Positions 49,441 to 64,000 of a stretch of DNA of 64,000 nt are shown here, piece by piece; within the stretch, counting starts at the first letter, position 1; each line of letters begins with the position of its first letter. The stretch is from Bacillota bacterium (GTDB lineage: Bacteria; Bacillota; Desulfitobacteriia; Desulfitobacteriales; JAJXUE01): positions 15,136 to 79,135 of the forward strand of contig JAJXUE010000007.1 in the NCBI GenBank assembly GCA_021783135.1. The letters are read 5' to 3'. The notes under the pieces are model-generated. The model had not been told where the DNA came from. It ran no database searches and saw only the letters and a list, made by a program, of their open reading frames with translations. The position numbers were made by a program, and so were the translations under genes.

Positions 49441-49580
49441 ATGAGTAAAATGTTTTCATTGGTAGCACCAAGAATATAGTATGGAACAGCATTTGCTTTC
49501 CAAGATCTTATTTTCTAGGAATGACTTTTCTCTCTCATAGCAAGACCTTTGGCAATCACCGATTGCACTACCGATGAACA

Positions 49581-49985
49581 TCAGCCACCGGCAGGATTTT
49601 TAGTCAGACATTCACACCCTGTATTGGCTCCCGTATGCCTCTTAATATCTTCCAATGTTGAACAGCATTGTGCTTCAGCTACATGATATAAGATCTCCTC
49701 CTCCTTAACATTTGCACAGTAACAAATTGGAATTGGGGGAGGAACGTTTTTAAACCAAATCTTGTTGACCAATTGGTCTTGACTAATGGTCATCTTACTG
49801 TTTTGTGTGTAATAAGCGACTTCACATTCGGGAGTTCTACACAAGAAAAAATGTTCTTCTTCTTCAATTTCAACGCCAGGTTGTACCTGATGTTCAACTG
49901 TTTCCTTACGTACTTTCTGCCCTATCCCATTACAAACAGGGCAATCCGGAATTACTTTTGAATTTGCGGATAGTTCAATAATCAT
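49581..49985 (-). CDS. Cysteine-rich metal-binding protein: N-terminal Zn-ribbon-like CxxC...CxxxC plus C-terminal BFD-like CxC...CxC (CopZ N-terminal-domain-like)
   Basis: CPVCNG...CRTPEC, then ICYCANV...(about 30 aa)...GCEC. The architecture is as recalled for the A. fulgidus CopZ N-domain family. TTG 49991 is an alternative start. Confidence 0.55.
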   Translation of the reverse strand: MIIELSANSKVIPDCPVCNGIGQKVRKETVEHQVQPGVEIEEEEHFFLCRTPECEVAYYTQNSKMTISQDQLVNKIWFKNVPPPIPICYCANVKEEEILYHVAEAQCCSTLEDIKRHTGANTGCECLTKNPAGG

Positions 49986-50061
49986 GAGCAAACACTTCTT
50001 TCACAACAACTTGCGTGTATTTAATTGACCTCCAGTTTTTGTCCTTCGGTTGATAGATCTT

Positions 50062-50091
50062 TTTGAAAAAGACCGGGAAACTATCCCGGCC
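50062..50091 (-). terminator. Intrinsic terminator after the thioredoxin-like gene (minus strand)
   Basis: On the minus strand: GGCCGGGATAGTTTCCCGGTC followed by TTTTT. Confidence 0.55.
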
Positions 50092-50127
50092 CATACAATT
50101 AAAATAAATCGTTCTTGGCGTTTACAT

Positions 50128-50400
50128 TTATTGACCTAGTCCGGCTCTTTTTAGTGTTTCATAGTCAATTCCCCTGTTGCTGCAGCAATCCACTAACTTT
50201 CCGTTGATAGCAACGGCAGGAACCGATTTAACGCCGTACTGCTCGGCCTTTTCAACGCATTCATTAGTATCACACTTTTTGTTTAAGTCGTATACCTTCA
50301 CTTCGCAGTTGGGACAAGCTAGAGTCTTTATTTCTTTTACAGCATTCTCACAGATGTAGCAACCAGCCGTAAAAATTTCAATCAGCCTCTTGTTAGCCAT
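50128..50400 (-). CDS. Thioredoxin-fold small redox protein (MTH895/Thioredoxin_3-like), Cys-rich
   Basis: 90 aa with CYIC and CPNC motifs plus four more Cys residues and the SVPAVAINGK pattern. ATG 50400 lies 6 nt after AAGGAGGTG and overlaps the merR stop. Confidence 0.65.
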   Translation of the reverse strand: MANKRLIEIFTAGCYICENAVKEIKTLACPNCEVKVYDLNKKCDTNECVEKAEQYGVKSVPAVAINGKLVDCCSNRGIDYETLKRAGLGQ

Positions 50401-50809
50401 TTTCCTCACCTCCTTCCGACAACCTTTCTACAATAGGACAACTATGAACAGGCCCTTGGTCGGGACATCTGCTCGATAAATCTTGTAGAACGCTTTTGAT
50501 GCTTTGTAGGTCACGTATTTTGGACTCTATCTCCTTTATCTTTTGTGAGGCAAATAGCCGAACTTCCCGACAACCAGAACTTTCGCTCTCAGTTATACTA
50601 AGAAGTTTTTTAATTACCGAAAGAGTAAACCCTAAATCTTGAGAGCGTTTTATGAACCTAATTCGCTGAATCACTTCAGGTGGAAAGATTCGGTAACCAG
50701 ATTTTGTTCGTGGGGGTTCCGATATCAAGCCTAATCTTTCATAATACCTAATCGTCTCGATATTTACGCCAGCGTTTTTAGCTAATTCGCTAATAGTCAG
50801 TCCATTCAT
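50393..50809 (-). CDS. merR: MerR-family metal-responsive regulator with Hg(II)-type cysteine triad
   Basis: HTH LTISELAKNAGVNIETIRYYERLGLI. Cys80, Cys115 and Cys124 have spacings of 35 and 9, identical to the recalled MerR triads (Tn501 C82/C117/C126; Bacillus C79/C114/C123). Confidence 0.8.
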   Translation of the reverse strand: MNGLTISELAKNAGVNIETIRYYERLGLISEPPRTKSGYRIFPPEVIQRIRFIKRSQDLGFTLSVIKKLLSITESESSGCREVRLFASQKIKEIESKIRDLQSIKSVLQDLSSRCPDQGPVHSCPIVERLSEGGEENG

Positions 50810-50828
50810 TTGCTCACCTCACATGTCT

Positions 50829-50860
50829 AGTATAAAGTCTGTAGTTAGGTACGGTGTCAA
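50829..50860 (-). promoter_or_regulatory. MerR-type promoter with over-long spacer (TTGACA, 20 nt, TATACT)
   Basis: The minus strand reads TTGACA CCGTACCTAACTACAGACTT TATACT, 19 nt upstream of the merR ATG. A 19-20 bp spacer is the hallmark of MerR-activated promoters. Confidence 0.6.
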
Positions 50861-50928
50861 GGGTTTATTAGCACCATTTTAACATATCCTTATATGGAGT
50901 AAGATAAGCAAGCTGATCATGGGTATCA

Positions 50929-51239
50929 GAGTTCAAGGCTGCCCTTAAACATGAAGAATGCACAGACCTTGACTGGGCAGCAGACATTTCGCAAAACCTT
51001 GGCTGTTATGACTTTTATTTCTCACTGACATCACCGGAGGAATATGGCGTGCGCACATTACAGGCAGCGGATATATGAATTCCCTTGAACCGGTATTATG
51101 CTGTTTTGACTTTGAGCAGTACGGAAGGGATCAGATAGCAGCCGGGGGTACAGTGACAACAGAATATGGTATGATTGCCCGCAATGAAAAGGAATTTTAC
51201 TTCGACTACTATACCCCGCCGTCTACACGCAGCAATTGA
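50929..51239 (+). pseudogene. 5'-truncated, frameshifted remnant of an ArdA-like gene
   Basis: EFKAALKHEECTDLDWAADISQNLGCYDFYFSLTSPEEYG...* (stop 51076-78), then in another frame ...CCFDFEQYGRDQIAAGGTVTTEYGMIARNEKEFYFDY. This is colinear with the C-terminus of the ORF at 62840 (KYKAALQYEYCTDLDLAIDIAQNLDCYSFYSSLCSPEDYG...FLDFRQYGEAKMKEHGVKFTDYGLICRNEKEFVFEF). Confidence 0.75.
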
Positions 51240-51304
51240 TATAGTGCCTTTTGGTTTTCAAAAACTGAAAGGCATTTTTTATTTAAATAAATAGGAGGGA
51301 AAAA

Positions 51305-52171
51305 ATGCTTAAATTAATTATCAGCAACACCCAAAAAGATGAACATGGGCAGCAGCTTGCGGTGCACGTTGAGCTTCCCGCGGCAGAGGAAACGCTTCAA
51401 AAAGCTGTCGGAGAAATCGGATTGAGCGATTTCGACAACGGCGGCTATGAGATCATTGGTCACTCCTTCGGAAAATATGAGGACCTGCAGAACAACATCC
51501 CAGGAGGCGCCAACATCAATGAACTCAATCTCCTTGCCCATAAGTTCAAAGGATTTACTGAAGAACAGGCTGAGGATTTCATGTCCCTGCTCACAGACTG
51601 CGGGGATATTACGGTCAAAGACCTCATCAACAAGGCGTACTACCTTGAAGACGACTCCTATGAAATATGGCATGGCGTCACGGATTTAGATGAGCTTGGA
51701 CACCGTTTTGTAGAGGAAAAAGCACCGGATCTGCCGGAGGAAATCTTTGAAAACATTGACTATGAGGATGTAGGCTACCATGTGCAGTCCAATGACCATG
51801 GCGAGTTTACTAATGCCGGATATATTCGCAACTCCAATGCGGTAGTGGACGAGGTATACGATGGCACTAACCTCATTGAACTGATTGCCAAAGAACGGGA
51901 GAAGCAAAAATCGTTGAAAAGTAAAGACGGATCTTTAAGTAAAGAGGATGTAATGATTAAAGCAACTATCGATGGTCTGACTGCTACTGCTGTAGAAAAA
52001 GCTTGTGTTCTTGGAGTGGAAGCAACAGAGGATATCGGTGAACTTCGTAAAACGGTAGCTGAACTGATCCGTTTTTGGAGCCTTGATGAGCGATGGCTTG
52101 AACAGTTTGATATGGAGGTTCAAACCGTCATGGAGGGTACGGTGAAGCAGAGCGGCATGCAGATAAACTAA
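51305..52171 (+). CDS. ArdA-like anti-restriction protein, single module plus ~90-aa C-terminal extension
   Basis: MLKLII start like its paralogs. Module end is FENIDYEDVGYHVQSNDHGEFTNAGYI. Strong SD (AGGAGGG). It ends 13 nt before the first pilus gene, with no terminator between them. Confidence 0.6.
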   Translation: MLKLIISNTQKDEHGQQLAVHVELPAAEETLQKAVGEIGLSDFDNGGYEIIGHSFGKYEDLQNNIPGGANINELNLLAHKFKGFTEEQAEDFMSLLTDCGDITVKDLINKAYYLEDDSYEIWHGVTDLDELGHRFVEEKAPDLPEEIFENIDYEDVGYHVQSNDHGEFTNAGYIRNSNAVVDEVYDGTNLIELIAKEREKQKSLKSKDGSLSKEDVMIKATIDGLTATAVEKACVLGVEATEDIGELRKTVAELIRFWSLDERWLEQFDMEVQTVMEGTVKQSGMQIN

Positions 52172-52184
52172 ATTCCTTGAAGGA

Positions 52185-52916
52185 GTGATGAATAAGTTGA
52201 AGATACTCAAGAACCGGATATTTTTAAGCGTCCTCTGCATTGTCCTGGCAGGAGCCATTTCTTTTTTGCTCCTGCCGAAGTTTTATGCAGACAAGGGTGC
52301 GACAGTGATGGTGCTTCGGGCTGCGGAGGACATCCCGGCAGGCACAAAGATACAGAGTAAATATCTTGCTATGGTGGAGGTGGGAAAATTCGGTTTGCCC
52401 GATGCCGTCATCAAAGATAAGGTCTTGGCTGAAGGGAAGATCGCGCAGACTGACATTGCGAAGGGGGACTACGTGTTTACCCAAAAGATCGGTGACTTTG
52501 TCGCCGATGAAAAGCTGGACCGTATTGCCAGGGATAATAAACGGCTGGTTACCATCAGTGTGCCAAGCATTGCCGCAGGGCTCTCCTCCCATTTAGAAAG
52601 CGGCGACATTGTGACAGTGGCTGTCTTTTCAAATCAAAAAAAAGAGGGGGACGCAAGTCAAAGCACTCCCGCCCAGGTTATCCTCTACCCTGAACTGAAA
52701 GGACTGGAGGTTTACAGTGTGGAGAATGCCCGCACACAGAGCACCGCCCAGGTCCGAAAGCAGCAAGCGGAAAATCAGCAGTCTTCCAGCGATCCCATCC
52801 CCAAGGCGGTTACCCTGATAGCTACCGAAGCGCAGGCAGCGAAACTCATCGAAGCCGAATACACGGGCAAGCTGCATCTGATCTTTGAAAAAAGGGGGGT
52901 AAGCCATGAGCAGTAA
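52185..52916 (+). CDS. cpaB: Flp pilus assembly protein CpaB-like (SAF domain plus RcpC/CpaB region)
   Basis: N-terminal TM, SAF-like VLRAAEDIPAGTKIQSKYLAMVEV, and ...LVTISV...GD.V.V pattern. The exact start is uncertain. Confidence 0.65.
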   Translation: MMNKLKILKNRIFLSVLCIVLAGAISFLLLPKFYADKGATVMVLRAAEDIPAGTKIQSKYLAMVEVGKFGLPDAVIKDKVLAEGKIAQTDIAKGDYVFTQKIGDFVADEKLDRIARDNKRLVTISVPSIAAGLSSHLESGDIVTVAVFSNQKKEGDASQSTPAQVILYPELKGLEVYSVENARTQSTAQVRKQQAENQQSSSDPIPKAVTLIATEAQAAKLIEAEYTGKLHLIFEKRGVSHEQ

Positions 52917-53643
52917 AATCATCACTGTTTGGGGCAAGGGCAACAGCGGAAAAACCACTTTTGCGGTCAACTTAGCCTGCGCTTTGGCAAACCGTGACCA
53001 CCTTGTGGGGCTCATTTCCTCCAACCTGATCTACGGCGACCTGCAGGTGTATTTTGGGCAGAGCATACCACCGGAAAAGGGACTGTTCCGTGCGCTCCAT
53101 GAAGACAATCCCAATGTGGGTGAGAAGTTTATGGAGGCCGGGGAAAGTAAAAATCTCTTTTTTCTGTCCGTACCCAATCATTACACAGGGCTTTTATGTG
53201 ACAGCGTATCCCTCCAAAGCGTGGAAAGGCTCATCACCGCATCCACTCTCCTGTTCGACATCTTACTGATTGACGGCTCGGGGGATCTAACCAATCCCAT
53301 ATCCGGAACAGGGCTCTGGCTGGCGGAAAAGGTGTACACCCTGTACAGGCCGTCTGCCTCTGCCCCTATGTGGCATAAAGGAGTAGAGGATTTTGTCCAG
53401 GAACTTCATATCGCCGACAAGCAAATCAATGTAATGCAAACACCGAATGGTGAGTTCGATGACAAAACCTTTAAGAGTCTTATAGAGCTTTCCTTTAAAT
53501 ATGAACTTCCCTTTGTAAAGCAAGCAGGTGAGCTTGAAAACGCCGGTACTCCGGTGTTTTTTTATGAGGATCGAGGGTGCAGACAGTACAGAAGAGTCCT
53601 GGAAAAAATCTCAGATGAACTATGCGGAGGAAAGGACCAATGA
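52906..53643 (+). CDS. ParA/MinD-type ATPase, TadZ/CpaE-like pilus localisation protein
   Basis: Deviant Walker A VWGKGNSGKTTFAVNLA. 245 aa. Overlaps both neighbours (11-nt and ATGA overlaps). Confidence 0.65.
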   Translation: MSSKIITVWGKGNSGKTTFAVNLACALANRDHLVGLISSNLIYGDLQVYFGQSIPPEKGLFRALHEDNPNVGEKFMEAGESKNLFFLSVPNHYTGLLCDSVSLQSVERLITASTLLFDILLIDGSGDLTNPISGTGLWLAEKVYTLYRPSASAPMWHKGVEDFVQELHIADKQINVMQTPNGEFDDKTFKSLIELSFKYELPFVKQAGELENAGTPVFFYEDRGCRQYRRVLEKISDELCGGKDQ

Positions 53644-55034
53644 ACAAGGGATTTTCAGTCAATGAACTGATCTACAAGGCCAACAAGCAGGGCTCCGACA
53701 GCGGGGAGAACAGCCTGGAAGCCCAGGACTACGGCGACATTCTGGATAAATTGCAGCGGATTATCTCTAAAAACCACTCCACCGAATTGGCACAGGTGCT
53801 GTATTCGGAAGAAGCGGAGGGAAAGCTGAAGAACCTCATCATGCAGTATTTGAATAGTGAACGGATGGTGGCAAAGGGGATTCAAAATATTTCTGAGCTG
53901 GTCGATAGGGTATACAACGATATGGCAGGCATGGGGATTTTATCGGAATACCTGAAGGACAGCGAGGTTGAAGAGATCAACGTCAATGGGTACAACGGAG
54001 TATGGGTTTTATACAAGGATAAAAAGGTGCGGCTCCCGGTAACCTTCAGCAGCCCGGAGGCTTGCTCCAACATCGCCAAGAAAATGAGCCGCTTTGGCAA
54101 TGTCATCCTGGATGGCTCAAAGCCTATAGGCGACAGCTTTATTTCACGGGGCATCCGCATGTCCGGTGCCATTGTACCCTGCGTTGATTTCGATGCCGGT
54201 GCCATTGCTTCCATCAGAAAGCAAAAGCCGTCCTATATCACAAGAGAAAACCTGATTTATTGGGGGACAGCTACAGAAGATGAGCTGGATTTTCTCACCC
54301 TCTGCGTTAATAACGGCATATCGGTAGCCATCGCTGGGGCAACCGGCAGCGGAAAGACCTCCGATATGGGATATATTCTAAGCTGTATTTCAAGTGATAA
54401 AAGAATCGTAACCATAGAGGACACCCGCGAACTGACTCTGGTCCAAGTGGATGAAAACGGCGTAATGGTCAACGATGTCATTCACCTTTTGACAAAGGAA
54501 GAACCCAATCCCATTACCATGCTGGACCTGTTGAAGCTGTCTTTGAGGCTCCACCCGGCAATCCTTGTCCCGGCTGAGATGAGGGGGAAGGAAGCCCTGA
54601 CGGTGCAGGAAGCAGGACGTACAGGGCACACCATCGTCAGCACTCTGCATGCCAACAGTGCCAGGACAGCCTATGAAAGAATCCTGACCATGTGCCTGGA
54701 AGCCGGAACCTCCTTGTCGGAAGAAAGGTTGCTTAAAAATATCGTAGAAGCTTTTCCCATTATGGTCTTTAAAATGCAGTTGCCCGACCAGTCCCGAAAG
54801 TACATGGAAATCTTCGAGGCCACCGGGGTAAAAGATGGAGAGTTGGCAGGCAATACCCTTTTCCGATACGACATTGATCATTATGAAAAAGACGAAGCTG
54901 GAAGAATCAAAACGGTTGTAGGAAGTCACAAGCACATAGGGCATATATCCCAGACCCTTGCCGAGAGGCTCTTGATCAATGGGGTTGAACGAAAGGAAAT
55001 TTGCCGTTTCGCAGGAAACAAGTTTAAAAATTGA
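53640..55034 (+). CDS. cpaF: CpaF/TadA-family secretion ATPase (T2SS-E/VirB11 superfamily)
   Basis: Walker A GATGSGKTS, Asp box VTIEDTRELT, His box GHTIVSTLHANSA. ATG 53640 overlaps the upstream TGA. Confidence 0.85.
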   Translation: MNKGFSVNELIYKANKQGSDSGENSLEAQDYGDILDKLQRIISKNHSTELAQVLYSEEAEGKLKNLIMQYLNSERMVAKGIQNISELVDRVYNDMAGMGILSEYLKDSEVEEINVNGYNGVWVLYKDKKVRLPVTFSSPEACSNIAKKMSRFGNVILDGSKPIGDSFISRGIRMSGAIVPCVDFDAGAIASIRKQKPSYITRENLIYWGTATEDELDFLTLCVNNGISVAIAGATGSGKTSDMGYILSCISSDKRIVTIEDTRELTLVQVDENGVMVNDVIHLLTKEEPNPITMLDLLKLSLRLHPAILVPAEMRGKEALTVQEAGRTGHTIVSTLHANSARTAYERILTMCLEAGTSLSEERLLKNIVEAFPIMVFKMQLPDQSRKYMEIFEATGVKDGELAGNTLFRYDIDHYEKDEAGRIKTVVGSHKHIGHISQTLAERLLINGVERKEICRFAGNKFKN

Positions 55035-55047
55035 AGGGAGGTTGACT

Positions 55048-55962
55048 ATGAATAGCATCCAGGGTTCCCTTGCCTTTGTCTTTGTCCTGATCAGCCTTGC
55101 CCTTTTCCTCCTGCTGAAGCTTAACCCTTTTGCAGTGGAGAAAAACACTTTGAAACAGCGGCGGTTGTATCTGTCTAGGACAAAGCTGAAAATCAGCGAG
55201 AGAGTGATCCTCCGGTTCACAACCCTGTTCCGGCAAACCAGATACACGCTTAAGAAATTTATCCTGATGGTTGCCGCAGCATTTGTGTCGGGTTTTTTGG
55301 CGGGGGTTTTGCTTTTTAACAACGCTGGCTTAGCAGCGGTTACAGCAGTCTGCCTTATCCCTGCTCCTTACTTTTACCTGACTGTGAAAAGTTCCAGAGC
55401 AGCGAGGGAAGAAATTGAGGGGTTGGAAAATACCATGTCCATCATCACCAACGCCTATGCTGGATGTGACGATATTATCAAGGCGGTGGAAACCTATGTC
55501 GAAGAGAAGAACCGCTATACCCCTGTGGAGTTAATGAAGCCAACACCCTTCGATGAATTTATCTCAGAAATAAAGCTTATAAATCCCAACATAGAACATG
55601 GGCTGTACCGCCTGTCTGCTAAAATCAAAAACCGATACTTTGCCGAGTGGATAAAAATGTTGATTCTCTGCTATCACGACAGGCGGCTGAAATTTGCCCT
55701 GTTTCCCGTGATAAAGTCGATGAATGATGCCAAGGCCATGCAGATTGAAAGTGACAGCATGATGAGCAGGGTATGGCGGGATTATCTGATGACGGTGGGC
55801 ATGATGTTCAGTATTATTCCATTGATGCGTTTTTCAAATGCCGAATGGTTTGCCATTCTGACCGGAACCACCCTAGGAAAATTACTGATTGTCGTCATGC
55901 TCGTAACCGCTCTGGCAACTTCGTTCTTCGTGATGAAGATGACCAGGCCTGCCAACCGATAG
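55048..55962 (+). CDS. tadB: TadB-like type II secretion system F-family membrane protein
   Basis: N-terminal TM, cytoplasmic helical domain and C-terminal TM pair. It is in the canonical position after cpaF. ATG lies 7 nt after GGGAGG. Confidence 0.65.
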   Translation: MNSIQGSLAFVFVLISLALFLLLKLNPFAVEKNTLKQRRLYLSRTKLKISERVILRFTTLFRQTRYTLKKFILMVAAAFVSGFLAGVLLFNNAGLAAVTAVCLIPAPYFYLTVKSSRAAREEIEGLENTMSIITNAYAGCDDIIKAVETYVEEKNRYTPVELMKPTPFDEFISEIKLINPNIEHGLYRLSAKIKNRYFAEWIKMLILCYHDRRLKFALFPVIKSMNDAKAMQIESDSMMSRVWRDYLMTVGMMFSIIPLMRFSNAEWFAILTGTTLGKLLIVVMLVTALATSFFVMKMTRPANR

Positions 55963-56001
55963 AAAACTCAACCAAAATCAATTTTTCAGGGAGGTTTAAT
56001 T

Positions 56002-56907
56002 TTGTTCTATCAAATCATCGTCTTTGTCCTGCTGACTGCGGCAGGATTTTTAATTTGCAGGCAAATACTCAAAATACCCAAGCTGAGCATGAAAAAAAAC
56101 ATCAAAAACTTACAGGTAGAAAAAGAAAAAACGGGAGCAAGGTTGCTCAACCTTTTTGTGATGCCCCTTGTAAAGCCGGTATCCCGATTGATCAGAATTG
56201 AACCGGAGAAAGAAGCAAAAATGGCGTCAATGCTAAGACGTGGAGGACTTGCGCTAACACCAAAGGAATATCATGCACGTGCTCTCATCTGTGCTGCTTT
56301 CACCCTGCCGCTCTTGATTCTGCTTTTGGCAATCGGAGCAACAAACATTGCTCCTGCAATTCTTATCTTTTCGGTGGTAGTATATTTCCACTTCATGACC
56401 GACCTCAAAGACAAGCTGAAAGAGAAAAAGGAATTAATCGAAATAGAACTTCCAAGTTTTGTTCGCTCCATCCTCTATAAGCTTGAAGATGTGCGGGGCG
56501 GCAACGAAAATACGGTTGTCCAGGTGGACCTGATCCAGATATTTGAGGACTATCTAAAGGTAGCGAGTGAGGTTTTCTACTATGACATTGCGGTTCTGAT
56601 CATGGAGATGAAAGCCAAGGACATAGAAACAGCGCTTCGAAACTTCAGTGAGCGTGTCGGACTTCTTGAGGTATCCTTTTTGGTCAATGCCCTTATCGGC
56701 CTATACCGCGGAGAACATCAGGGCGAGGCTCTAATGTATCTTGCCAAGGATATGGACATCAAGGCGAAGGAAGCCCTGCGCAAAAATCTGGGCAAGCTGC
56801 CCGGCAAAATAAAAATGGCATCCATACCCCTTGTGGTAGTGACCCTGGCAAGCCTTTTATATGTTATAGGCTCCCATTTAGTCCGATCCATGGGGGGCCT
56901 TTTTTGA
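56002..56907 (+). CDS. tadC: TadC-like type II secretion system F-family membrane protein
   Basis: Same architecture as the preceding gene (a second T2SS-F paralog). TTG start 7 nt after GGGAGG. Confidence 0.65.
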   Translation: MFYQIIVFVLLTAAGFLICRQILKIPKLSMKKNIKNLQVEKEKTGARLLNLFVMPLVKPVSRLIRIEPEKEAKMASMLRRGGLALTPKEYHARALICAAFTLPLLILLLAIGATNIAPAILIFSVVVYFHFMTDLKDKLKEKKELIEIELPSFVRSILYKLEDVRGGNENTVVQVDLIQIFEDYLKVASEVFYYDIAVLIMEMKAKDIETALRNFSERVGLLEVSFLVNALIGLYRGEHQGEALMYLAKDMDIKAKEALRKNLGKLPGKIKMASIPLVVVTLASLLYVIGSHLVRSMGGLF

Positions 56908-56962
56908 TGTGAAAACGGGGCAACCCTTTTCAAATAAAACTATATTATTCAGGAGGTAAAGC

Positions 56963-57214
56963 ATGAAAAACGGAACAAACACAATCCAAATCACGGAGGA
57001 AAGGAGGTCAAACCCCATGAGAAACAAAATGGCAAACGCCTTTTCAAAGGCAAGAGGACTTATGGTTAACAAGTCCGGTGACCAGATGACAGGCTGGCTC
57101 ATTGTCGTACTGATCGTAGTGGTAGTGGGTGCAGTATTCATGACCCTGTATCAGGGTTCCATTACGCAAATCTGGAACAGTATTGTCACCAAGATTACAA
57201 GTCTTTTGGGCTAA
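56963..57214 (+). CDS. Flp-like type IVc pilin candidate 1
   Basis: Basic leader ending ...NKSG, then DQMTGW and a 20-aa hydrophobic helix. The mature part would be about 44 aa. ATG 57017 is an alternative start and aligns better with paralog 2. Confidence 0.55.
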   Translation: MKNGTNTIQITEERRSNPMRNKMANAFSKARGLMVNKSGDQMTGWLIVVLIVVVVGAVFMTLYQGSITQIWNSIVTKITSLLG

Positions 57215-57240
57215 ATAACGGCAAACTGTAAAATTACCCA

Positions 57241-57279
57241 CAAAGGTAAAAAGGAGAAACTTTCTCCCTTTTACCTTTG
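57241..57279 (+). other. Long hairpin after pilin gene 1 (attenuator or 3' stabiliser)
   Basis: 19-bp stem CAAAGGTAAAAAGGAGAAA / TTTCTCCCTTTTACCTTTG with one mismatch and a 1-nt loop. No canonical U-tract follows. Confidence 0.55.
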
Positions 57280-57377
57280 ATGAAATGTTTTGCAACTGAT
57301 ATTACGGGCCTCAACTCTGGTAAAACCTTAAAAAATCAAACTGAAATCAAAAAATAACTATACGGAGGCATTTTTCT

Positions 57378-57587
57378 ATGATGAGAACTTTGAGAAACAA
57401 AATGGCGATGGCAGGCTTAAAGGCTAGGAAAGTATTGACCAATCAATCCGGCGATCAGATGACAGGCTGGCTGATCGTTGTACTGATCGTAGTCGTCGTC
57501 GGTGCGGTATTTATGACGCTTTACCAGGGTTCTATTACGCAGATTTGGAACAGTATTGTAACCAAAATCACCGGCCTTTTGAGCTAA
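57378..57587 (+). CDS. Flp-like type IVc pilin candidate 2 (paralog of 56963-57214)
   Basis: SGDQMTGWLIVVLIVVVVGAVFMTLYQGSITQIWNSIVTKIT is identical to paralog 1 over 42 aa. The leader differs. It has its own SD (ACGGAGG). Confidence 0.55.
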   Translation: MMRTLRNKMAMAGLKARKVLTNQSGDQMTGWLIVVLIVVVVGAVFMTLYQGSITQIWNSIVTKITGLLS

Positions 57588-57637
57588 ACTATTCGGCGGC
57601 TGCGAAACAACACCGCCAGAACAGGGGGTGTAAAGGG

Positions 57638-58126
57638 ATGAACAGGCAGTGCCGGAGCTTATGGGGGAGATGTTCTCCCCCTTTTTCTTTGAAAAAGGTG
57701 TTGGTTAATCGAAAAGGTAGTGCCTATTATGAACTGATTATCAAAACCTTGGTGGTCATTACACTGATGGCGACGGTGATGTCCTTCTTAAGCATCTTCA
57801 CCACCTATCTGAGTCTTAACCAGGTCTGCCGCCGGGTGGTCCGGGTCATTGAGCTGGAGGGACAGGTATCGGACAATGCATATGATGTTTTTTATCGGCT
57901 CAAGGAACAAACCGGGCTGTCTCCTGAAATGAGCATCGGGGATGTCAATTATTGTGATGAACAAAACCAAAAAATTCAGCTAAGAGATACTTTTACAGTA
58001 AAGATGAAATACAACTATGCCTTTACGGTGTTTCGGCCTTCCTCCTCTCCACCGGTGCAAATCATCATACCCATGGAGGTGCGCATCACGGGCATGTCGG
58101 AAAAATATTGGAAGCTTTTAGAGTGA
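57638..58126 (+). CDS. TadE-like minor pilin / pseudopilin candidate (DUF4320-like)
   Basis: ...NRKG/SAYYELIIKTLVVITLMATVM has Gly, then Glu at +5, then a hydrophobic helix, which is a class III signal-peptide-like site. The start is uncertain (ORF open from 57545). Confidence 0.5.
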   Translation: MNRQCRSLWGRCSPPFSLKKVLVNRKGSAYYELIIKTLVVITLMATVMSFLSIFTTYLSLNQVCRRVVRVIELEGQVSDNAYDVFYRLKEQTGLSPEMSIGDVNYCDEQNQKIQLRDTFTVKMKYNYAFTVFRPSSSPPVQIIIPMEVRITGMSEKYWKLLE

Positions 58127-58152
58127 AAGCGCCGGAAGGGAGGGATAATTTT

Positions 58153-58638
58153 GTGGGCAAAACCGGACCCATTTTAAAAAGCAAAAAAGGCGATGGGCTG
58201 GTGTTTATCTTGATCCTCATCTTTTTTATTATGACCCTTGCAGCCATCGTCATTGAATATTTCCGCATGGACAGCCTGTACCAGCAGGTGGAATATGTGC
58301 TCCAGCGGGGAGTGAATTCCTCCGTGGAGTACGCCATGCTGGACGAATACCGCAAAGACGGCTATGCCCGGATGGACAGCGCCCTTGCGGAAGAACAGCT
58401 CTACGGCTATCTTCATGAAAGCATGCAGCTGGACCGAGATCTGAACAAGTATTCCGGGGAGCAATGGGTGTACACCCTTGAAATCCAGAGCCTCACCGCA
58501 ACCGATGATCCGCCCCGGCTCATCTTGAAAGGGCAGTTGAGAACCCGGAGCGTTTTTAGTTTCCTGACTGGCGAGGTGCGGCTGCCCTTTACTCTCTCCA
58601 GCAGCAACAACAGAATTGATGAAGGAGGTTCCCCATGA
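58153..58638 (+). CDS. TadE/TadG-like minor pilin candidate
   Basis: ...KSKKGDGLVFILILIFFIMTLAAIVIEYF N-terminal hydrophobic helix. GTG 58153 lies 8 nt after GGGAGGG. Its 3' end overlaps the next gene (ATGA). Confidence 0.45.
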   Translation: MGKTGPILKSKKGDGLVFILILIFFIMTLAAIVIEYFRMDSLYQQVEYVLQRGVNSSVEYAMLDEYRKDGYARMDSALAEEQLYGYLHESMQLDRDLNKYSGEQWVYTLEIQSLTATDDPPRLILKGQLRTRSVFSFLTGEVRLPFTLSSSNNRIDEGGSP

Positions 58639-61600
58639 AGCAAAAAGTAATTATTGCTATACCCTTGGCGTTTTTATGCTGTCTGCTATTTTCAACGCAA
58701 GTCTTTGCCCTGTCCGGCAGCGACATTACGCTGAAAATACGCTCTCCCGTAAACAGCCTGACCAGTGAAAGCGGTGTGATCGCGGTGGAGCAGTTTCCGG
58801 CAGAAATTGCCATCAGCGTTGCGGCAAAGGCGGGCAATTTGGCAGGAATACAATTAAGCCATAACGGTCAGACCCTGGAGATTCCGGCGGACCACATTCT
58901 GACCATTGCGAATAAAGAAGCCTGCGGGGTGTATACCCTGACAGCGAAAACAGATGGGGGCGCAGTCCTCACCATAAGCACAAATGTAGTATTCCAGGTA
59001 AAAGCCACATACAATATCCGCTACCGCACGGTAGGGATGAATTTGAAGGAAGCCTATGATGGAGCAGACAAGCTAAAGACCTTCCCCACACCCCAGCGCA
59101 TTGACCTGGTGCAGGCCAACACCATCGCCGGATACGAGCAGAAACGCTTTGCCGGGCTGATCGGCAGGAGCGACGGCAGGACCTACACGTTGAAGGGCAG
59201 TCTGGTGGTGGAGGTTTACGACTATTCCACCGGGAAGGTCATCGGGACCTATGATGCAAATCAGGATTTTGATGCCCTGACTAAAGGTTTTCATTGGACC
59301 ACCAAGAGCCTCATGGCCTTTGAAACCATGCGGAACACGGCAATCACCTATCAAGCCCCTGTGAAAATTGACGTCCAGGCTACATGGTGCAGTGAAGACA
59401 AGCAGGAGGTGTACGGCAAAGCTACGGCACAGGACAGGGGTGTGCCGGAATACCTCTATCCCTACCAGACTACCAGCGTCACCTTCTCAAAGGATGATAT
59501 CCCCCTATCGCGCAACTATATCTATAGAGGTCTGGAATGGGATTACAAACCGGAAACTGCCGGATACACCGATGGGGAAAGTCAGACCCAAACGGTAATT
59601 ACTCAGAAAATCAATTATATGATTCCAGTAGCGAATTTTTACTTCAAGTTTAAAAAACAGGATGGCAACGACCTTTCCGTGAGCATCCACGCCCCTGAAA
59701 CCGTCTACCGAGGGGATAGCTATTCTTTCGAGGAGGTTTTTACCAACCATGGCGCAGCACCTGCCTATGATGTGCCCTTGATCGGCACCGTAGACCGGGA
59801 GCAGATGAAAGAAATCCCTGCCAAGCAGGATTTCTCGCCTAACGAAAGCAAAACCTTCACCCTCACACGGAATACTGACAAAGCAGGGGCAGTCATAACG
59901 TTGTGGGCGCAGATCGAAGTGCCCGAGGGATTTATGGATAAGAACCCGGAGAACAATACCGCGACATCGGTCATCCGGGTGGTGGAAAAACCGGAGCCGA
60001 CCCCAAGCCAGGGGAAGAACCCCGAACCGGACAAAGAAAATCCGCCACCGGCGGAAAATCCCGACCCGGAAAAGCTGTGTGATGAATCGGCAAGCATTGC
60101 AGCGCCGCCCACCGTTTACGAAGGGGAGACTTATCGCTTTACGGTGAGCTTTACCAACCATTCCGACAGGATGCTGAAGGATGCAGGGGTACAGGGGAAA
60201 AACAATGAGGTCGTTTTAGACTCAATTCCCAAAGCGCTTGACTTCAATCCCCTGGAAACCAAGACCTATACCCGCACCGGACAGGCGGGGCATGTGGGTG
60301 AGGTATATAACCTGTGGGCGAATATCGGAGTGCCCGAGGGCTTCCAGGATGAAAATCCGGTCGATAACACCGCGGCTTCCAAAATTACTGTTGTGGCAAA
60401 ACCCTCGGGCAATCCGCCCAGAAACTCGGATAATCCACCCAACAATCCGGATAATCCGCCGAAAAACCTGGACAATCCACCTAAAAATCCGGATAATCCG
60501 CCGAAAAACCCGGACAATCCACCTAAAAATCCGGATAATCCACCGACAAACCCAGACAATCCACCTGAAAATCCGAATAACCCGCCAACGAATCCGGTTC
60601 CCCCCCATGATCCCGGACATCCGCCCGTCGACCCGGTGGTGCCGCAGGAGAAGCTGTGCGATGTATGGGTGAACCTGTCCTACCCGCCCACGGTCTATGA
60701 GCAGGAGGAATATAGCTTTACTGTGTACTTCGGCAATGACACGGATAAAGCGCTGTCAGGGGTAAGCTTAAACGCTTCCATTGACGGTAAGGCAGTTTCA
60801 GCCGTACCGACTGCGGCAGATTTCCAAGCCCATGAAACTAAAGCCTTCCTTGTCAAAGGCAAGGCAGGAGAAAAAGGCACAACCATCCGACTGTCGGCCC
60901 AGGTGTCGCCACCTGCAGAGTACAGGGATACCAACACAAGCAACAACCGAGCTGAGGCAGAGCTTTCTGTAGTGGAGCGTCCCTATGACTTGGATGTGCA
61001 GCGGATCACGCCCGACTGGTACAAGGAGAATCAGACGGTCATCAGCACCATCAAGGTGTCAAACCGGGGAAGCCTGGACTTTACGCCTGGACAGAAGGTT
61101 TCAGTCCAGTTTGAAGTCCCGGAGCTTTTACTTAAAAAACGTATTGATGCTATCGTCATGGAAAAGGATACATGGAACGTCGTATCGGTCAAATGGGATA
61201 CCCCCAACGTGCAGGCCGATAAAAACATCACCCTGATTGCGGTCATCAATCCCGACCAAGTCCTGGACAATGAAACATCCAACGCCAACAACACCTATAC
61301 CCAAAAGGCCATCATCAAAAATGTAACCTATGATGAGCCGGAAGAGAATACAACCATTCCTGCACCACCGCCAAGAAGTGAGCAGCCCAGGGTGACCTGG
61401 AAGGAGCAGCAATATGAAAACGACCGGTTTGTTTGGAAAGACTTCTACGCCGAGCTAAAAGTAGATGCCGTCCTTGACTATGAAACAAAGGCAAAAGGCT
61501 ATATCAAATCGGGATATGGTTTTTCCATCAATGTTACGACCTCTGTGAATACCAACTATGATAAGTCGGAGCTGATTACTGCGCCGCAGACTGCCGAGGT

Positions 61601-61874
61601 CTATCTGCCCCAGTACCGCTATGAAACAGCCATACCACTAATGAAGGAGGGCGACCATTTTACATTCAAAGAAAATCTCACTTCACCCTTTCGATACAAG
61701 AAGCAATATGTCCCGGTATGGTTCCCCGATGACAGGGACTATATCGTGCAGCTCCTTGTCACCGATGTGCACACTCCCGGAGGTACCCTATCTAAATGGA
61801 TCACCGGAGGAAATCTGAAAATGAAGGTGGTTGACAGCATGTACTCCGATGATGTCACCACGGGAAGTCCATGA
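58635..61874 (+). CDS. Secreted 1079-aa CARDB-repeat protein with Pro/Asn-rich heptad stalk (candidate pilus-associated adhesin)
   Basis: Signal peptide MKQKVIIAIPLAFLCCLLFSTQVFA. Four CARDB-like modules of about 110 aa each end in E/D-N-x-x-N-N (about 59672-59995, 60074-60410, 60652-60985, 60985-61320). There is a (D-N-P-P-x-N-P)n linker and no LPXTG motif. Confidence 0.7.
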   Translation: MKQKVIIAIPLAFLCCLLFSTQVFALSGSDITLKIRSPVNSLTSESGVIAVEQFPAEIAISVAAKAGNLAGIQLSHNGQTLEIPADHILTIANKEACGVYTLTAKTDGGAVLTISTNVVFQVKATYNIRYRTVGMNLKEAYDGADKLKTFPTPQRIDLVQANTIAGYEQKRFAGLIGRSDGRTYTLKGSLVVEVYDYSTGKVIGTYDANQDFDALTKGFHWTTKSLMAFETMRNTAITYQAPVKIDVQATWCSEDKQEVYGKATAQDRGVPEYLYPYQTTSVTFSKDDIPLSRNYIYRGLEWDYKPETAGYTDGESQTQTVITQKINYMIPVANFYFKFKKQDGNDLSVSIHAPETVYRGDSYSFEEVFTNHGAAPAYDVPLIGTVDREQMKEIPAKQDFSPNESKTFTLTRNTDKAGAVITLWAQIEVPEGFMDKNPENNTATSVIRVVEKPEPTPSQGKNPEPDKENPPPAENPDPEKLCDESASIAAPPTVYEGETYRFTVSFTNHSDRMLKDAGVQGKNNEVVLDSIPKALDFNPLETKTYTRTGQAGHVGEVYNLWANIGVPEGFQDENPVDNTAASKITVVAKPSGNPPRNSDNPPNNPDNPPKNLDNPPKNPDNPPKNPDNPPKNPDNPPTNPDNPPENPNNPPTNPVPPHDPGHPPVDPVVPQEKLCDVWVNLSYPPTVYEQEEYSFTVYFGNDTDKALSGVSLNASIDGKAVSAVPTAADFQAHETKAFLVKGKAGEKGTTIRLSAQVSPPAEYRDTNTSNNRAEAELSVVERPYDLDVQRITPDWYKENQTVISTIKVSNRGSLDFTPGQKVSVQFEVPELLLKKRIDAIVMEKDTWNVVSVKWDTPNVQADKNITLIAVINPDQVLDNETSNANNTYTQKAIIKNVTYDEPEENTTIPAPPPRSEQPRVTWKEQQYENDRFVWKDFYAELKVDAVLDYETKAKGYIKSGYGFSINVTTSVNTNYDKSELITAPQTAEVYLPQYRYETAIPLMKEGDHFTFKENLTSPFRYKKQYVPVWFPDDRDYIVQLLVTDVHTPGGTLSKWITGGNLKMKVVDSMYSDDVTTGSP
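60408..60596 (+). repeat. In-frame 21-nt tandem repeat, 9 units, encoding (D/G/N)NPPxN(P/L/S)
   Basis: Units were read directly. The pair of units at 60450-60491 is repeated at 60492-60533 with 41/42 identity. Confidence 0.9.
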
Positions 61875-62284
61875 TGCTGCTGCTTTACGCCATCCCGATG
61901 GTCTGTGCTGCCATCACGGATTGGAAAAAACGGATTATTCCCGATTGGACATGGATTGCCATTCTTATGGTGGGATTTGCTTCTGCGGTCATCAATGGTA
62001 AAGGAATCTTATATATTCCCCTGCTTGAAAGATTTACGGGACTTTTGTTCCCGGCAGTCTGCCTTCTTATGATTGCTTTCAAATGGGGCGGTGTTGGTGG
62101 AGGAGATATTAAGCTGATGGCAGCCTTAGGCTTTTGTTTCGGGCTTTACGGACTTGTAGCCATCCTCTTTTTTGCTGTCATCCCTGCCTGCATTTATGCC
62201 AGAGCGACAAAGCAAAGGAGCGTGCCTTTGGCCGTATTTTTGTGCATCGGTTTCTTTGTATATGCCGGTCTTTTACTTTCATAG
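61871..62284 (+). CDS. A24-family prepilin peptidase (TadV/CpaA-like)
   Basis: 137-aa polytopic protein with two Asp motifs (AITDWKKRIIPD; GGGDIKLMAALG). ATGA overlap with the upstream gene. Confidence 0.75.
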   Translation: MMLLLYAIPMVCAAITDWKKRIIPDWTWIAILMVGFASAVINGKGILYIPLLERFTGLLFPAVCLLMIAFKWGGVGGGDIKLMAALGFCFGLYGLVAILFFAVIPACIYARATKQRSVPLAVFLCIGFFVYAGLLLS

Positions 62285-62351
62285 AGGGGATATTTTTTGA
62301 AAGTATTATTGGTGCTGCAGATTTGCAGCCCTTTATAGGGAGGAATATTGT

Positions 62352-62783
62352 GTGATACATTTTCACGATGAAGTCCACCGGCAGAAGGTCGTAAACTGCT
62401 TGCAAAAGGAAAACAGGATTTATCCCGATGGCAGGGCTGACAGCTATTACCTGCCTGCCCTGTATCTGCTTCTCTCTACAAAAAACGATCTGTATAAAAA
62501 GACCAGCAGGTATATCGACAGGGATGGCATCGACTTTGAAAAAATGCTATCCAAACAGGACTTTCCCAGCAGTGAAAGAAAGCTTATCAAACTGGCGGCC
62601 AATCTTTTCAACGACTCTATGGAGGTTTCCCCTTCGGAGTTGATCGACACGCTGGATGAGGAAAACTTTACTCTGGCTATGCAGGCCATTTTTCTCAAAC
62701 GCACCAGTTGCCACGTTCAGGAGCTGCTTCCTGCTGCAAAGGAAGTTCCTGAACTGGAGCCACAGTATGAGCTGAAGATGTAG
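62352..62783 (+). CDS. DUF6075-like protein (conjugative-element associated)
   Basis: 143 aa. The pattern ...F...EH......L.......D.YY.PALYLL... ...R.LIKLAANLFN is as recalled for DUF6075. GTG start after GGGAGG. Confidence 0.45.
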   Translation: MIHFHDEVHRQKVVNCLQKENRIYPDGRADSYYLPALYLLLSTKNDLYKKTSRYIDRDGIDFEKMLSKQDFPSSERKLIKLAANLFNDSMEVSPSELIDTLDEENFTLAMQAIFLKRTSCHVQELLPAAKEVPELEPQYELKM

Positions 62784-62839
62784 ATGGATTGACCTCCACG
62801 CTGCAGATAAACAAATTCTCATAGATGGGAGGATTGAAA

Positions 62840-64000
62840 TTGAATGAAATAAAAATAACGGTTTTAAGAGATGATCTCTGCGATAACTCCAGCTATATCG
62901 GTGCACACCTCTGTCTACCTGCAACGAATGCCGAAATACAGGATGCCCTTGAAAAAGCAAGGATCGATGATGAGCATCCAGATTTTATGGTAGTGGATTA
63001 TGCGTGTGGGCAGGATTACTTAAACGAGCTTCTGCCGAAGAAGGCTTCGCTTTATGAGCTTGACTACCTCGCAAGGCGGCTGGCCAGTATGGATGATTTT
63101 GAAAAAGTAGCTTTTGAGGGAGTAGTAAAAATGGAGGGAGCGCCTGACCTTGTTAAGCTCATCAACCTCACCTACAACCTCGCCGATTGTAATGTAGCCT
63201 TTGCAGTGTACAATGACAAGCAGCTCGGCAAATTTTATGTCGACAATGAGTTCATAACGGAGCTGGAGAAAGTGCCTGAAAAAGTGCTGCAATACCTCGA
63301 CTATGAAAAGGTGGGACGTATCCACAGAGAGGCAGAAAAGGGTGTGTTCACGAAAACCGGTTATGTAGTGCAATCAGAGCCGGATATAAAGGTTGTCTAT
63401 GACAGCACCAACATTCCCAAGCCCGATGACGATAGCGGATATGTTTTCAAGCTGTATCTTATAGAAGGATGTTTTGAACCGGAAAAAGCAAAAGGGGTTT
63501 GGCTGAAGCTTCCTGCATCGGAGGCAGAAATCGTGTCGGCCCTGGCGGAGATCGGGGTGGCTTCTTTATTTGATTGCGTTTTTACCCACTGCGAAAGCAG
63601 CATGCCCTGCTTCGAGGATGTGTTCTCTGAAAGTGAGGACATAGAAATGCTGAATATCTTAAGCAATGCTATTTCAAAAATCATAGATAGCAATATGGGC
63701 ACTAAGTACAAAGCTGCCCTTCAATATGAATACTGCACCGATCTGGACTTGGCCATTGACATTGCACAAAACCTGGACTGCTACAGCTTTTATTCCTCTC
63801 TTTGCTCACCAGAGGACTATGGACGGCAGGCACTGCTCAAAGCATCCGGGCTCCCGCCCGATGATATAGCCTTTAAGTTTCTTGATTTCAGACAGTACGG
63901 TGAAGCAAAAATGAAGGAGCATGGGGTGAAATTCACAGATTACGGATTGATTTGCCGCAACGAGAAAGAGTTTGTGTTCGAATTTTGTACCAGACCGCAA
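62840..64000 (+). CDS. ArdA-like anti-restriction protein, at least two modules, 3' end outside the window (absent from the ORF track because no stop is reached)
   Basis: Frame is open from TTG 62840 (7 nt after GGGAGG) to nt 64000. Module ends are LQYLDYEKVGRIHREAEKGVFTKTGYVV and FKFLDFRQYGEAKMKEHGVKFTDYGLIC. Confidence 0.65.
   Translation, partial: MNEIKITVLRDDLCDNSSYIGAHLCLPATNAEIQDALEKARIDDEHPDFMVVDYACGQDYLNELLPKKASLYELDYLARRLASMDDFEKVAFEGVVKMEGAPDLVKLINLTYNLADCNVAFAVYNDKQLGKFYVDNEFITELEKVPEKVLQYLDYEKVGRIHREAEKGVFTKTGYVVQSEPDIKVVYDSTNIPKPDDDSGYVFKLYLIEGCFEPEKAKGVWLKLPASEAEIVSALAEIGVASLFDCVFTHCESSMPCFEDVFSESEDIEMLNILSNAISKIIDSNMGTKYKAALQYEYCTDLDLAIDIAQNLDCYSFYSSLCSPEDYGRQALLKASGLPPDDIAFKFLDFRQYGEAKMKEHGVKFTDYGLICRNEKEFVFEFCTRPQ

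Follow-up and report, generated by a model that had tools for sequence, protein, structure and literature searches.

What is a large secreted protein with no anchor of a recognised type doing in the middle of a pilus operon? The question comes from 64,000 nt of Bacillota bacterium (assembly GCA_021783135.1, contig JAJXUE010000007.1, positions 15,136 to 79,135, forward strand), which we call the window and in which a Tad-like pilus operon includes a gene for a protein of 1079 amino acids (aa). Our answer, held tentatively and at somewhat less than an even chance, is that this protein is an analogue of PilC/PilY1 in function but not a homologue: an adhesin of the non-pilin kind, exported by Sec and docked through its C-terminus to the minor-pilin complex of a Tad-like pilus borne on an integrative and conjugative element (ICE). 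Secretion is supported by the predicted N-terminal signal. We infer that it docks to the minor pilins, sits on the filament and binds a target, as we likewise infer the tip location and recipient binding that a preliminary description of this DNA had proposed. Judged from sequence, what appears to be new is a non-pilin adhesin-like protein of a pilus operon with a new candidate docking module.

The gene and its export signals

The gene and the parts of its product are given below in window coordinates. CARDB scores refer to Pfam PF07705, a 101-position profile with a gathering score of 22.7 bits, and confidence values are those (predicted local distance difference test, pLDDT) of an AlphaFold2 (AF2) model of the full protein built on a 50-sequence alignment.

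58635-61874, plus strand: gene for the 1079-aa protein, the sole long open reading frame (ORF) at that position
58635-58709, plus strand: signal peptide of the Sec/signal peptidase I (SPase I) type, aa 1-25, cleavage VFA/LS; AF2 pLDDT <50 for residues 1-27
58716-59660, plus strand: N-terminal region without a family, made up of NT-a (aa 28-125, Ig-like beta domain, no family) and NT-b (aa 126-342, alpha/beta domain, no family, invariant motif YQAPV); AF2 pLDDT 80-90
59661-60404, plus strand: CARDB modules M1 (aa 343-452, CARDB 24.9 bits over profile positions 2-100) and M2 (aa 479-590, CARDB paralogue with no direct CARDB match), joined by a Pro-rich linker (aa 453-478); assigned from the CARDB match of M1 and the paralogy of M1 and M2
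60405-60647, plus strand: Pro/Asn heptad stalk (aa 591-671), a 21/42-bp tandem repeat
60648-60983, plus strand: M3 (aa 672-783, CARDB 21.8 bits, just under the gathering score)
60984-61322, plus strand: M4 (aa 784-896), a divergent CARDB-like beta-sandwich, roughly Pfam DUF8194
61377-61871, plus strand: C-terminal domain, CTD (aa 915-1079), Pfam DUF8195

The two gene overlaps that had been described are both present: an ATGA joins the start of the gene to the stop of an upstream 176-aa ORF (58636-58638), and another joins its stop to the start of a Peptidase_A24 gene (61871). The start codon has a GGAGG 8 nt upstream of it. The N-terminus carries the expected Sec-type signal, MKQK followed by a 20-residue hydrophobic core and then VFA/LS (a slash marks cleavage here and below), so its pattern is the classical Sec one instead of the class III (type IV pilin) signal peptide, in which a short basic leader with Gly at -1 precedes ~20 hydrophobic residues and is cut by the A24 peptidase. 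The G/hydrophobic motif is present in the Flp pilins and in the two pilin-like proteins encoded upstream. With no pilin N-terminus, the protein would be unable to polymerise into the filament.

At the other end, neither an LPXTG-like motif near the C-terminus nor a second hydrophobic segment was found, in agreement with the earlier claim that a sortase signal and a C-terminal transmembrane (TM) segment are lacking. Kyte-Doolittle windows above 1.6 are confined to residues 1-29, and the combination that marks a sortase anchor (C-terminal LPXTG, hydrophobic segment, basic tail) is absent. With no covalent anchor, any retention of the protein would have to be non-covalent.

The pilus operon

The gene lies near the end of an operon whose other members, all on the plus strand, are as follows.

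52185-52916, plus strand: RcpC/CpaB (Pfam RcpC 2.6e-17, SAF)
52906-53643, plus strand: ParA/TadZ-like ATPase (Pfam CbiA/ParA)
53622-55034, plus strand: T2SSE/TadA-CpaF-type ATPase (Pfam T2SSE 2e-27)
54979-55962 and 56002-56907, plus strand: two polytopic platform-like proteins, so called from size and position only, with no Pfam match
56963-57214 and 57378-57587, plus strand: two Flp-like major pilin genes, from ORF translations
57638-58126, plus strand: DUF4320 minor-pilin-like protein (Pfam DUF4320 3.9e-42)
57663-57681, plus strand: terminator/attenuator-like hairpin, GGGGGAGA-TGT-TCTCCCCC and a T-run, G+C-rich and about 75 nt past the second pilin gene
58108-58638, plus strand: 176-aa pilin-like protein (161 aa from the ATG at 58153), no Pfam family
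61871-62284, plus strand: prepilin peptidase (Peptidase_A24, Pfam 5.7e-17)

Pfam matches to T2SSE, RcpC with SAF, CbiA/ParA and Peptidase_A24, together with Flp-type pilins, identify this as a Tad/type IVc operon. The tandem Flp-like pilins have unlike leaders and nearly identical predicted mature parts (about 46 aa, G/DQMTGWLIVV...), and the G/DQMTGW motif, which is kept in about 100 pilin copies of related loci, stands in place of the canonical G/xxxxEY, so that the mature N-terminus has no Glu+5 or Tyr+6. The DUF4320 protein has a prepilin-type N-terminus (...NRKG/SAYYELIIK) with an acidic residue at +5, and the 176-aa protein begins ...KKG/DGLVFILILIFF with Phe at +5. Since these prepilin-like N-termini are conserved in relatives, it is reasonable to call the upstream 176-aa ORF a minor-pilin candidate, as had been suggested.

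Of 44 related loci, 32 have the hairpin at the same site and distance, its stem extensions differing in a compensatory manner. Since it falls inside the 5' end of the called DUF4320 ORF, that gene probably starts farther downstream. Past it lies a distal block of four genes, namely those for the DUF4320 protein, the 176-aa protein, the 1079-aa protein and the A24 peptidase. Most transcripts would stop after the major pilin genes, and a lower level would read through into this block, a placement that fits low-copy tip or initiation components. Fixed stoichiometric co-expression with pilus biogenesis components, as the preliminary description had it, is thus an overstatement: judged from sequence, the gene is coupled to the minor-pilin-like genes and the peptidase, but not to the bulk pilin, which the conserved hairpin would split off.

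A conserved C-terminal unit that travels with Tad operons

An exhaustive profile search gave 458 relatives of the protein, and the only part widely shared among them is the last ~290 residues, i.e., M4 and the CTD. This unit ends ≤15 residues from the C-terminus in 97 of 98 relatives, at protein lengths of 360 to 1967 aa. Upstream of it, CARDB is found in 32 of 61 distant members, and others have GBS_Bsp-like repeats, beta-propellers, Flg_new, SpaA, Big or MG domains. A word-based homologue search with the CTD alone gave 35 candidates, all close relatives.

The C-terminal domain had been thought to belong to no nameable family. It does have one, PF26615 (DUF8195), and M4 corresponds approximately to PF26614 (DUF8194). 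Precomputed PF26615 matches exist for P0001, a homologue at 99% identity, and for most of the 120 homologues listed, and many have PF26614 as well; the direct Pfam scan of the window protein matched neither, both models possibly being absent from the Pfam copy used. Fragments limited to the last ~160 aa bear PF26615, so DUF8195 is the CTD and DUF8194 is roughly M4. Both families are catalogued in Pfam as uncharacterised, with no assigned function.

Modelled alone from a diverse alignment, the CTD is a sandwich of long beta-strands (pLDDT 93.8, predicted template modelling score 0.86). Its near-invariant motifs, W...SGYG...Q...PE..Y...P.W.PD..Y...TPGG...YDD, suggest a defined binding surface. 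M4, the first half of the unit, has no direct Pfam match, and its hhalign probability against M1-3 is <1%. Eight equivalent domains of distant relatives were tested, of which three match CARDB above the gathering score (30.3, 35.1 and 26.1 bits) and four below it; M4 is therefore probably a divergent CARDB-type sandwich by transitive homology. In the AF2 model it is a beta-sandwich of 7-8 strands.

To place the gene in its genomic contexts, we scanned one genome per species with a narrower CTD alignment, the diverse alignment being too divergent. This gave 48 loci spread over many Clostridia families. Among their sources are Desulfosporosinus, Dehalobacter, Thermotalea, Lutispora, Geosporobacter, Syntrophomonas, Pelotomaculum, Acetivibrio, Petroclostridium and Oscillibacter, the closest locus being that of D. 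metallidurans OL (92-100% amino-acid identity over the operon). The proposed tie between protein and pilus operon is borne out, with a DUF4320-type Tad operon at all 48 loci. The A24 peptidase lies directly downstream of the large gene in 47 of them and the 176-aa gene directly upstream in 40, and the Tad core and both pilin-like genes are upstream wherever the contig reaches (36-41 of the 48). The gene order within the assembly core recurs in 36-40 of the 48 loci, and the succession of DUF4320 gene, 176-aa gene, large gene and A24 peptidase gene in 47.

The association persists at CTD identities of only 20-30%, where eight of nine contexts are in or beside a DUF4320-type Tad operon. For example, the DUF8195 gene comes after DUF6133(Flp)-DUF4320-hypothetical genes in L005, L006, L057 and L060, is found just upstream of a Tad operon in L007, is followed directly by the A24 peptidase in L008, and is near a Tad operon on plasmid CP141730. 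On the C. difficile plasmid pCd5_2 (L063, NZ_CP037841.1), a 598-aa protein with a DUF8195 domain (E 1.5e-38) is likewise encoded near a Tad operon. Genes of a type IV secretion system (T4SS) are close by in L005 and pCd5_2 (TrbL/VirB6-like, VirD4-like, DUF3991-Toprim). The latter is a complete plasmid with an A24-RcpC-ATPase-DUF4320 operon and VirD4-like and pLS20_p028 (VirB6-like) genes; MOB-suite types it as 'non-mobilizable'.

The N-terminal region, the CARDB modules and the stalk

In the AF2 model, the protein is nearly all beta, with a mean pLDDT of 77, values of 80-90 in the folded parts, and disorder at residues 1-27, 453-474 and 592-670. Together with Pfam scans of the separate modules, the model upholds the idea of CARDB/Ig-like beta-sandwich modules. 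A full-length Pfam scan shows no CARDB, which emerges only when the modules are scanned one by one, and a full-length NCBIfam scan gave nothing useful. M1 scores above the gathering score over most of the CARDB profile. M1, M2 and M3 are mutual paralogues (BLAST E 1e-29 to 7e-18, hhalign probability 99.8-100%; for M1-M2, E 1e-29 and 99.9%). Of the four CARDB-like modules first described, M1-M3 are thus upheld by paralogy and CARDB matches, and M4 is a probable one by transitive homology. M2 and M3 both begin EKLCD, as reported; the xNxxNN ending is exact in M1 (NPENN) and M3 (NTSNN), but not in M2 (NPVDN) or M4 (SNANN). Four cysteines outside the signal peptide, C97, C252, C482 and C675, are invariant or nearly so, and C482 and C675 are those of the EKLCD starts of M2 and M3.

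The N-terminal region is without a family, as had been noted: Pfam and PDB sequence searches gave no match for it. Residues 100-246 are, however, 31% identical (E 3e-18) to a domain in P0208, a 332-aa protein in which this homologue, YQAP motif included, is fused to a TrbL_5/VirB6-like conjugal-transfer membrane domain. The fusion is a complete gene in two samples (L061 3656-4654; L062), and the homology hints at a link with conjugation. A thioester domain (Cys97/Cys252, Q-x-x-W) was considered for this region and rejected, as Gln248 is not conserved; the spacing of these residues also differs from what we take to be the thioester-domain motif.

The Pro/Asn heptad stalk between M2 and M3 is as described, with nine NPPxNPD heptads (aa 593-655) that match the 21/42-bp tandem repeat at 60398-60586. 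Its length among homologues is 16 to 81 aa, the window copy being the longest. A metagenomic contig (L001) that is 99.8% identical to window positions 49533-64000 (14.5 kb) has exactly one 42-bp unit (14 aa) fewer, at 60453-60538, so the repeat number shifts on very short timescales, and the difference indicates recent slippage.

Among 109 full-length homologues, variability and gaps are confined to the Pro-rich linkers. Identity to the window protein averages 0.62 for NT-a, 0.69 for NT-b, 0.62 for M1, 0.62 for M2, 0.67 for M3, 0.78 for M4 and 0.78 for the CTD. Hypervariable terminal domains, which the preliminary description had linked to receptor specificity, were therefore not seen: conservation at both ends equals that in the rest of the operon, and across loci the N-terminal region diverges at about the pace of TadZ or the peptidase.

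Searches against solved structures added little. The single 1079-aa sequence matched nothing in the PDB, and a profile search returned a V8 protease and weak CARDB-like entries. The V8 protease match is confined to the Pro-Asp-Asn low-complexity stalk and was discarded. Full-length Foldseek matches (hydin, alpha-2-macroglobulin, GhpA) are generic multi-Ig alignments with TM <0.2, uninformative on the terminal domains.

A proposed pilus-docked adhesin

The mechanism that we propose would run as follows. Sec would export the 1079-aa protein and its signal peptide would be removed. The C-terminal unit (M4/DUF8194 and DUF8195) would then dock it to a low-copy complex of the DUF4320 and 176-aa minor pilins, which in a monoderm Clostridium would prime or cap a pilus of the Tad type (type IVc-like). 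The Ig-like domain, the alpha/beta domain, the three CARDB modules and the variable Pro-rich stalk would project outward as the binding end. Because the operon is on a mobile element and related operons adjoin T4SS genes, the likely target would be another cell or a surface in mating-pair formation.

Several observations lead us to this reading. The protein has a Sec signal without a prepilin motif, LPXTG or TM anchor; its gene is linked by translational coupling to a pilin-like gene on one side and the prepilin peptidase gene on the other, an arrangement kept across loci; and the sole widely shared part sits at the extreme C-terminus, while the passengers of relatives are typical surface or stalk domains. 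Relatives at 20-30% identity still accompany DUF4320-type Tad genes, the conserved hairpin sets the distal block apart as expected of low-copy tip components, and part of the N-terminal domain is homologous to the VirB6/TrbL-like fusion domain. Finally, the architecture and gene order match the PilC/PilY1 paradigm (PMC12918778).

PilC/PilY1 proteins are Sec-exported non-pilins with diverse N-terminal adhesin parts and a conserved C-terminal domain; they are encoded right after the minor pilins and held at the fibre tip via the C-terminus, and the terminal strand of PilY1 is functionally conserved over the type IVa systems tested (PMC12918778). In this family, a beta-strand at the extreme C-terminus complements the apical minor pilin. 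The 1079-aa protein shares their hallmarks of Sec/SPase I export, a gene after the minor pilins, a variable N-terminal part and a conserved C-terminal part. Like them and like MshQ of MSHA pili, it is a large non-pilin protein expected at low copy. It differs in that the system here is Tad-like and monoderm, and in that its extreme C-terminal tail is not conserved.

Other systems resemble it in part. TadG/CpaL of Tad pili is also a large accessory component encoded with minor pilins, proposed at the tip and needed for assembly, but it is pilin-like with an N-terminal pilin domain, whereas the 1079-aa protein has a cleavable Sec signal and no pilin domain. PilV of the IncI (R64, TP114) thin pilus is also a type IV pilus adhesin on an element, used for liquid mating-pair formation beside a T4SS; however, PilV belongs to the minor pilins and owes its C-terminal diversity to a shufflon, whereas the 1079-aa protein is a non-pilin from a Gram-positive host and is diversified only in stalk repeat number. 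PrgB/aggregation substance is likewise a large secreted multi-domain surface protein of a Gram-positive mobile element with a Pro-rich spacer. In contrast to PrgB, the 1079-aa protein has no LPXTG and no polymer-adhesin-domain match in Pfam scans, and its gene is embedded in a pilus operon instead of standing beside T4SS genes. Among CARDB-repeat surface proteins (PF07705), it would be placed by M1 above threshold, M2 and M3 as paralogues of M1, and probably M4, transitively, but CARDB covers only the spacer modules, and it is the N-terminal region and DUF8195 that define its family.

Weighing the alternatives

A number of points weigh against a pilus-docked adhesin. What ties the protein to the filament is association only. 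There is no sequence or fold kinship with PilC/PilY1: DUF8195 is a ~165-aa beta-sandwich and theirs is a beta-propeller, so the analogy is functional only. Pfam scans of the protein gave no PilC/PilY1-family match, and no PilC/PilY1 structure is among the 50 Foldseek matches listed. The CTD has no convincing solved relative (best Foldseek E 4.5e-3, TM 0.42), and its tail past YDD is short, poorly conserved and of low confidence (pLDDT 59). An argument that the 176-aa protein is an apical minor pilin because it lacks Glu+5 is unusable, as the major pilin lacks Glu+5 too. The passenger is not diversified in the close family, which is unusual for a receptor-specific adhesin such as IncI PilV.

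The genomic contexts also hold some contrary evidence. L059 has no Tad genes in its 10.5 kb of sequence. In several distant loci, the gene directly upstream of the DUF8195 gene encodes a 250-380-aa Cu_amine_oxidN1 protein (L007, L059, L060), CWB2 protein (L063 21901-22935, with annotated cell wall-binding repeats) or Big_2 protein (L006, L057). Such wall-type neighbours, of which the window operon has none, hint at a wall-associated complex more than at a filament tip.

They lead to the first alternative, a surface adhesin beside the pilus, which we consider possible but unlikely. Here DUF8195 would bind a cell-wall polymer or another envelope component and so hold the protein non-covalently on the donor surface, where it would promote aggregation or mating in the way of PrgB-type aggregation substances but independently of sortase. 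The missing covalent anchor is as expected for such a protein, as are the neighbours with Cu_amine_oxidN1 or annotated CWB2 repeats, and the CTD beta-sandwich, like carbohydrate-binding modules, has many aromatic and polar residues that do not vary (W, SGYG, Q, Y, W, YDD). The Pro-rich stalk fits too, since such stalks are typical of wall-spanning regions in Gram-positive surface proteins. A general wall anchor would, however, be expected elsewhere as well, yet DUF4320-type Tad genes are present at 56 of the 57 loci with enough flank, and translational coupling between a pilin-like gene and the prepilin peptidase also speaks against this alternative.

A part in the structure or assembly of the monoderm Tad machine, for instance as a wall-spanning guide or a factor in filament initiation, with the CARDB string as a spacer, seems improbable to us. 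The protein does evolve at the rate of a machine part without being diversified, its gene is in the operon at every one of the 48 loci, and PilY1 and CpaL are themselves required for fibre initiation. In addition, the secretin and Rcp proteins, by which diderms guide the fibre, are missing from monoderm Tad systems (PMC6916266). However, the passenger is swapped freely across the DUF8195 family (propellers, Bsp-like repeats, SpaA), which better fits cargo or an adhesin, and the stalk ranges from 16 to 81 aa, differing even between 99.8%-identical elements.

Finally, a released exoprotein or cargo linked to the pilus by mere co-regulation (a secreted binding protein, or the substrate of a pseudopilus like that of the type II secretion system, T2SS) is very unlikely: type IV filament machines can serve as secretion pistons, as in the T2SS, and the protein has no recognised anchor type, but a piston in a monoderm would have no outer membrane to cross, Pfam scans of the full-length protein and its separate modules detected neither an enzymatic nor a toxin domain, and the deep conservation of a C-terminal module beside minor-pilin-like genes is hard to square with co-regulation alone.

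The mobile-element setting

The mobile-element setting described for the operon is real, and related loci bear T4SS genes. The window begins with ordinary chromosome (LigA, GatA/B, homocitrate synthase, isocitrate or isopropylmalate dehydrogenase), which extends to ~45.8 kb. The G+C content falls at 46-52 kb, past the last chromosomal gene, and the genes around the operon are as follows.

44488-45774: RumA-type (TRAM and tRNA_U5-meth_tr) methyltransferase, the last chromosomal gene before the element
47089-48261, 48262-49440 and 51305-52171: three ArdA-like antirestriction genes, upstream of the operon
49581-49991, minus strand: zf_CopZ-like ORF
50128-50409, minus strand: thioredoxin_3-like small protein
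50393-50809, minus strand: MerR-family regulator
62798 onwards: fourth ArdA-like gene, running past the window end

The minus-strand cluster (49581-50809) lies between ArdA genes, and its assignments come from the near-identical contig L001. Past the point where the window ends, L001 continues with genes for a Dam-type methylase, YodL and SpoVG and then, ~8 kb downstream, a second Tad-like locus (L001 20490-23198) with a DUF6133 Flp-like pilin, RcpC and a T2SSE ATPase. The operon region forms the end, rich in antirestriction genes, of an integrated mobile element, whose T4SS, if any, is outside the window.

What a pilus dock would mean

A 2025 review of T4SSs states that Gram-positive systems encode no conjugative pili, and in the literature that we searched for DUF4320, DUF8194, DUF8195 and Tad-like/Flp pili on Gram-positive conjugative elements, we found no description of this system. 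The observations made here are of a complete Tad-like pilus operon on mobile elements of many Clostridia families, with an unanchored adhesin-like protein dedicated to it, and of related Tad operons that adjoin VirD4/VirB6-like genes.

A broader reading, which we regard as doubtful, is that DUF8194 and DUF8195 form the docking cassette of an unrecognised class of Gram-positive conjugative pili, onto whose tips interchangeable adhesin passengers are loaded, in convergence with PilC/PilY1. Many Clostridia ICEs and plasmids, those of C. difficile included, may then encode a DUF4320-type Tad pilus beside a T4SS. If true, this would contradict the view that Gram-positive conjugation systems encode no pili.

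More narrowly, if DUF8195 is a pilus dock, then two Pfam DUFs would gain a function and there would be a handle on how monoderm Tad pili bear adhesins. It would also provide a concrete target for the study of pilus-assisted conjugation in Gram-positive anaerobes, including that of C. difficile plasmids.

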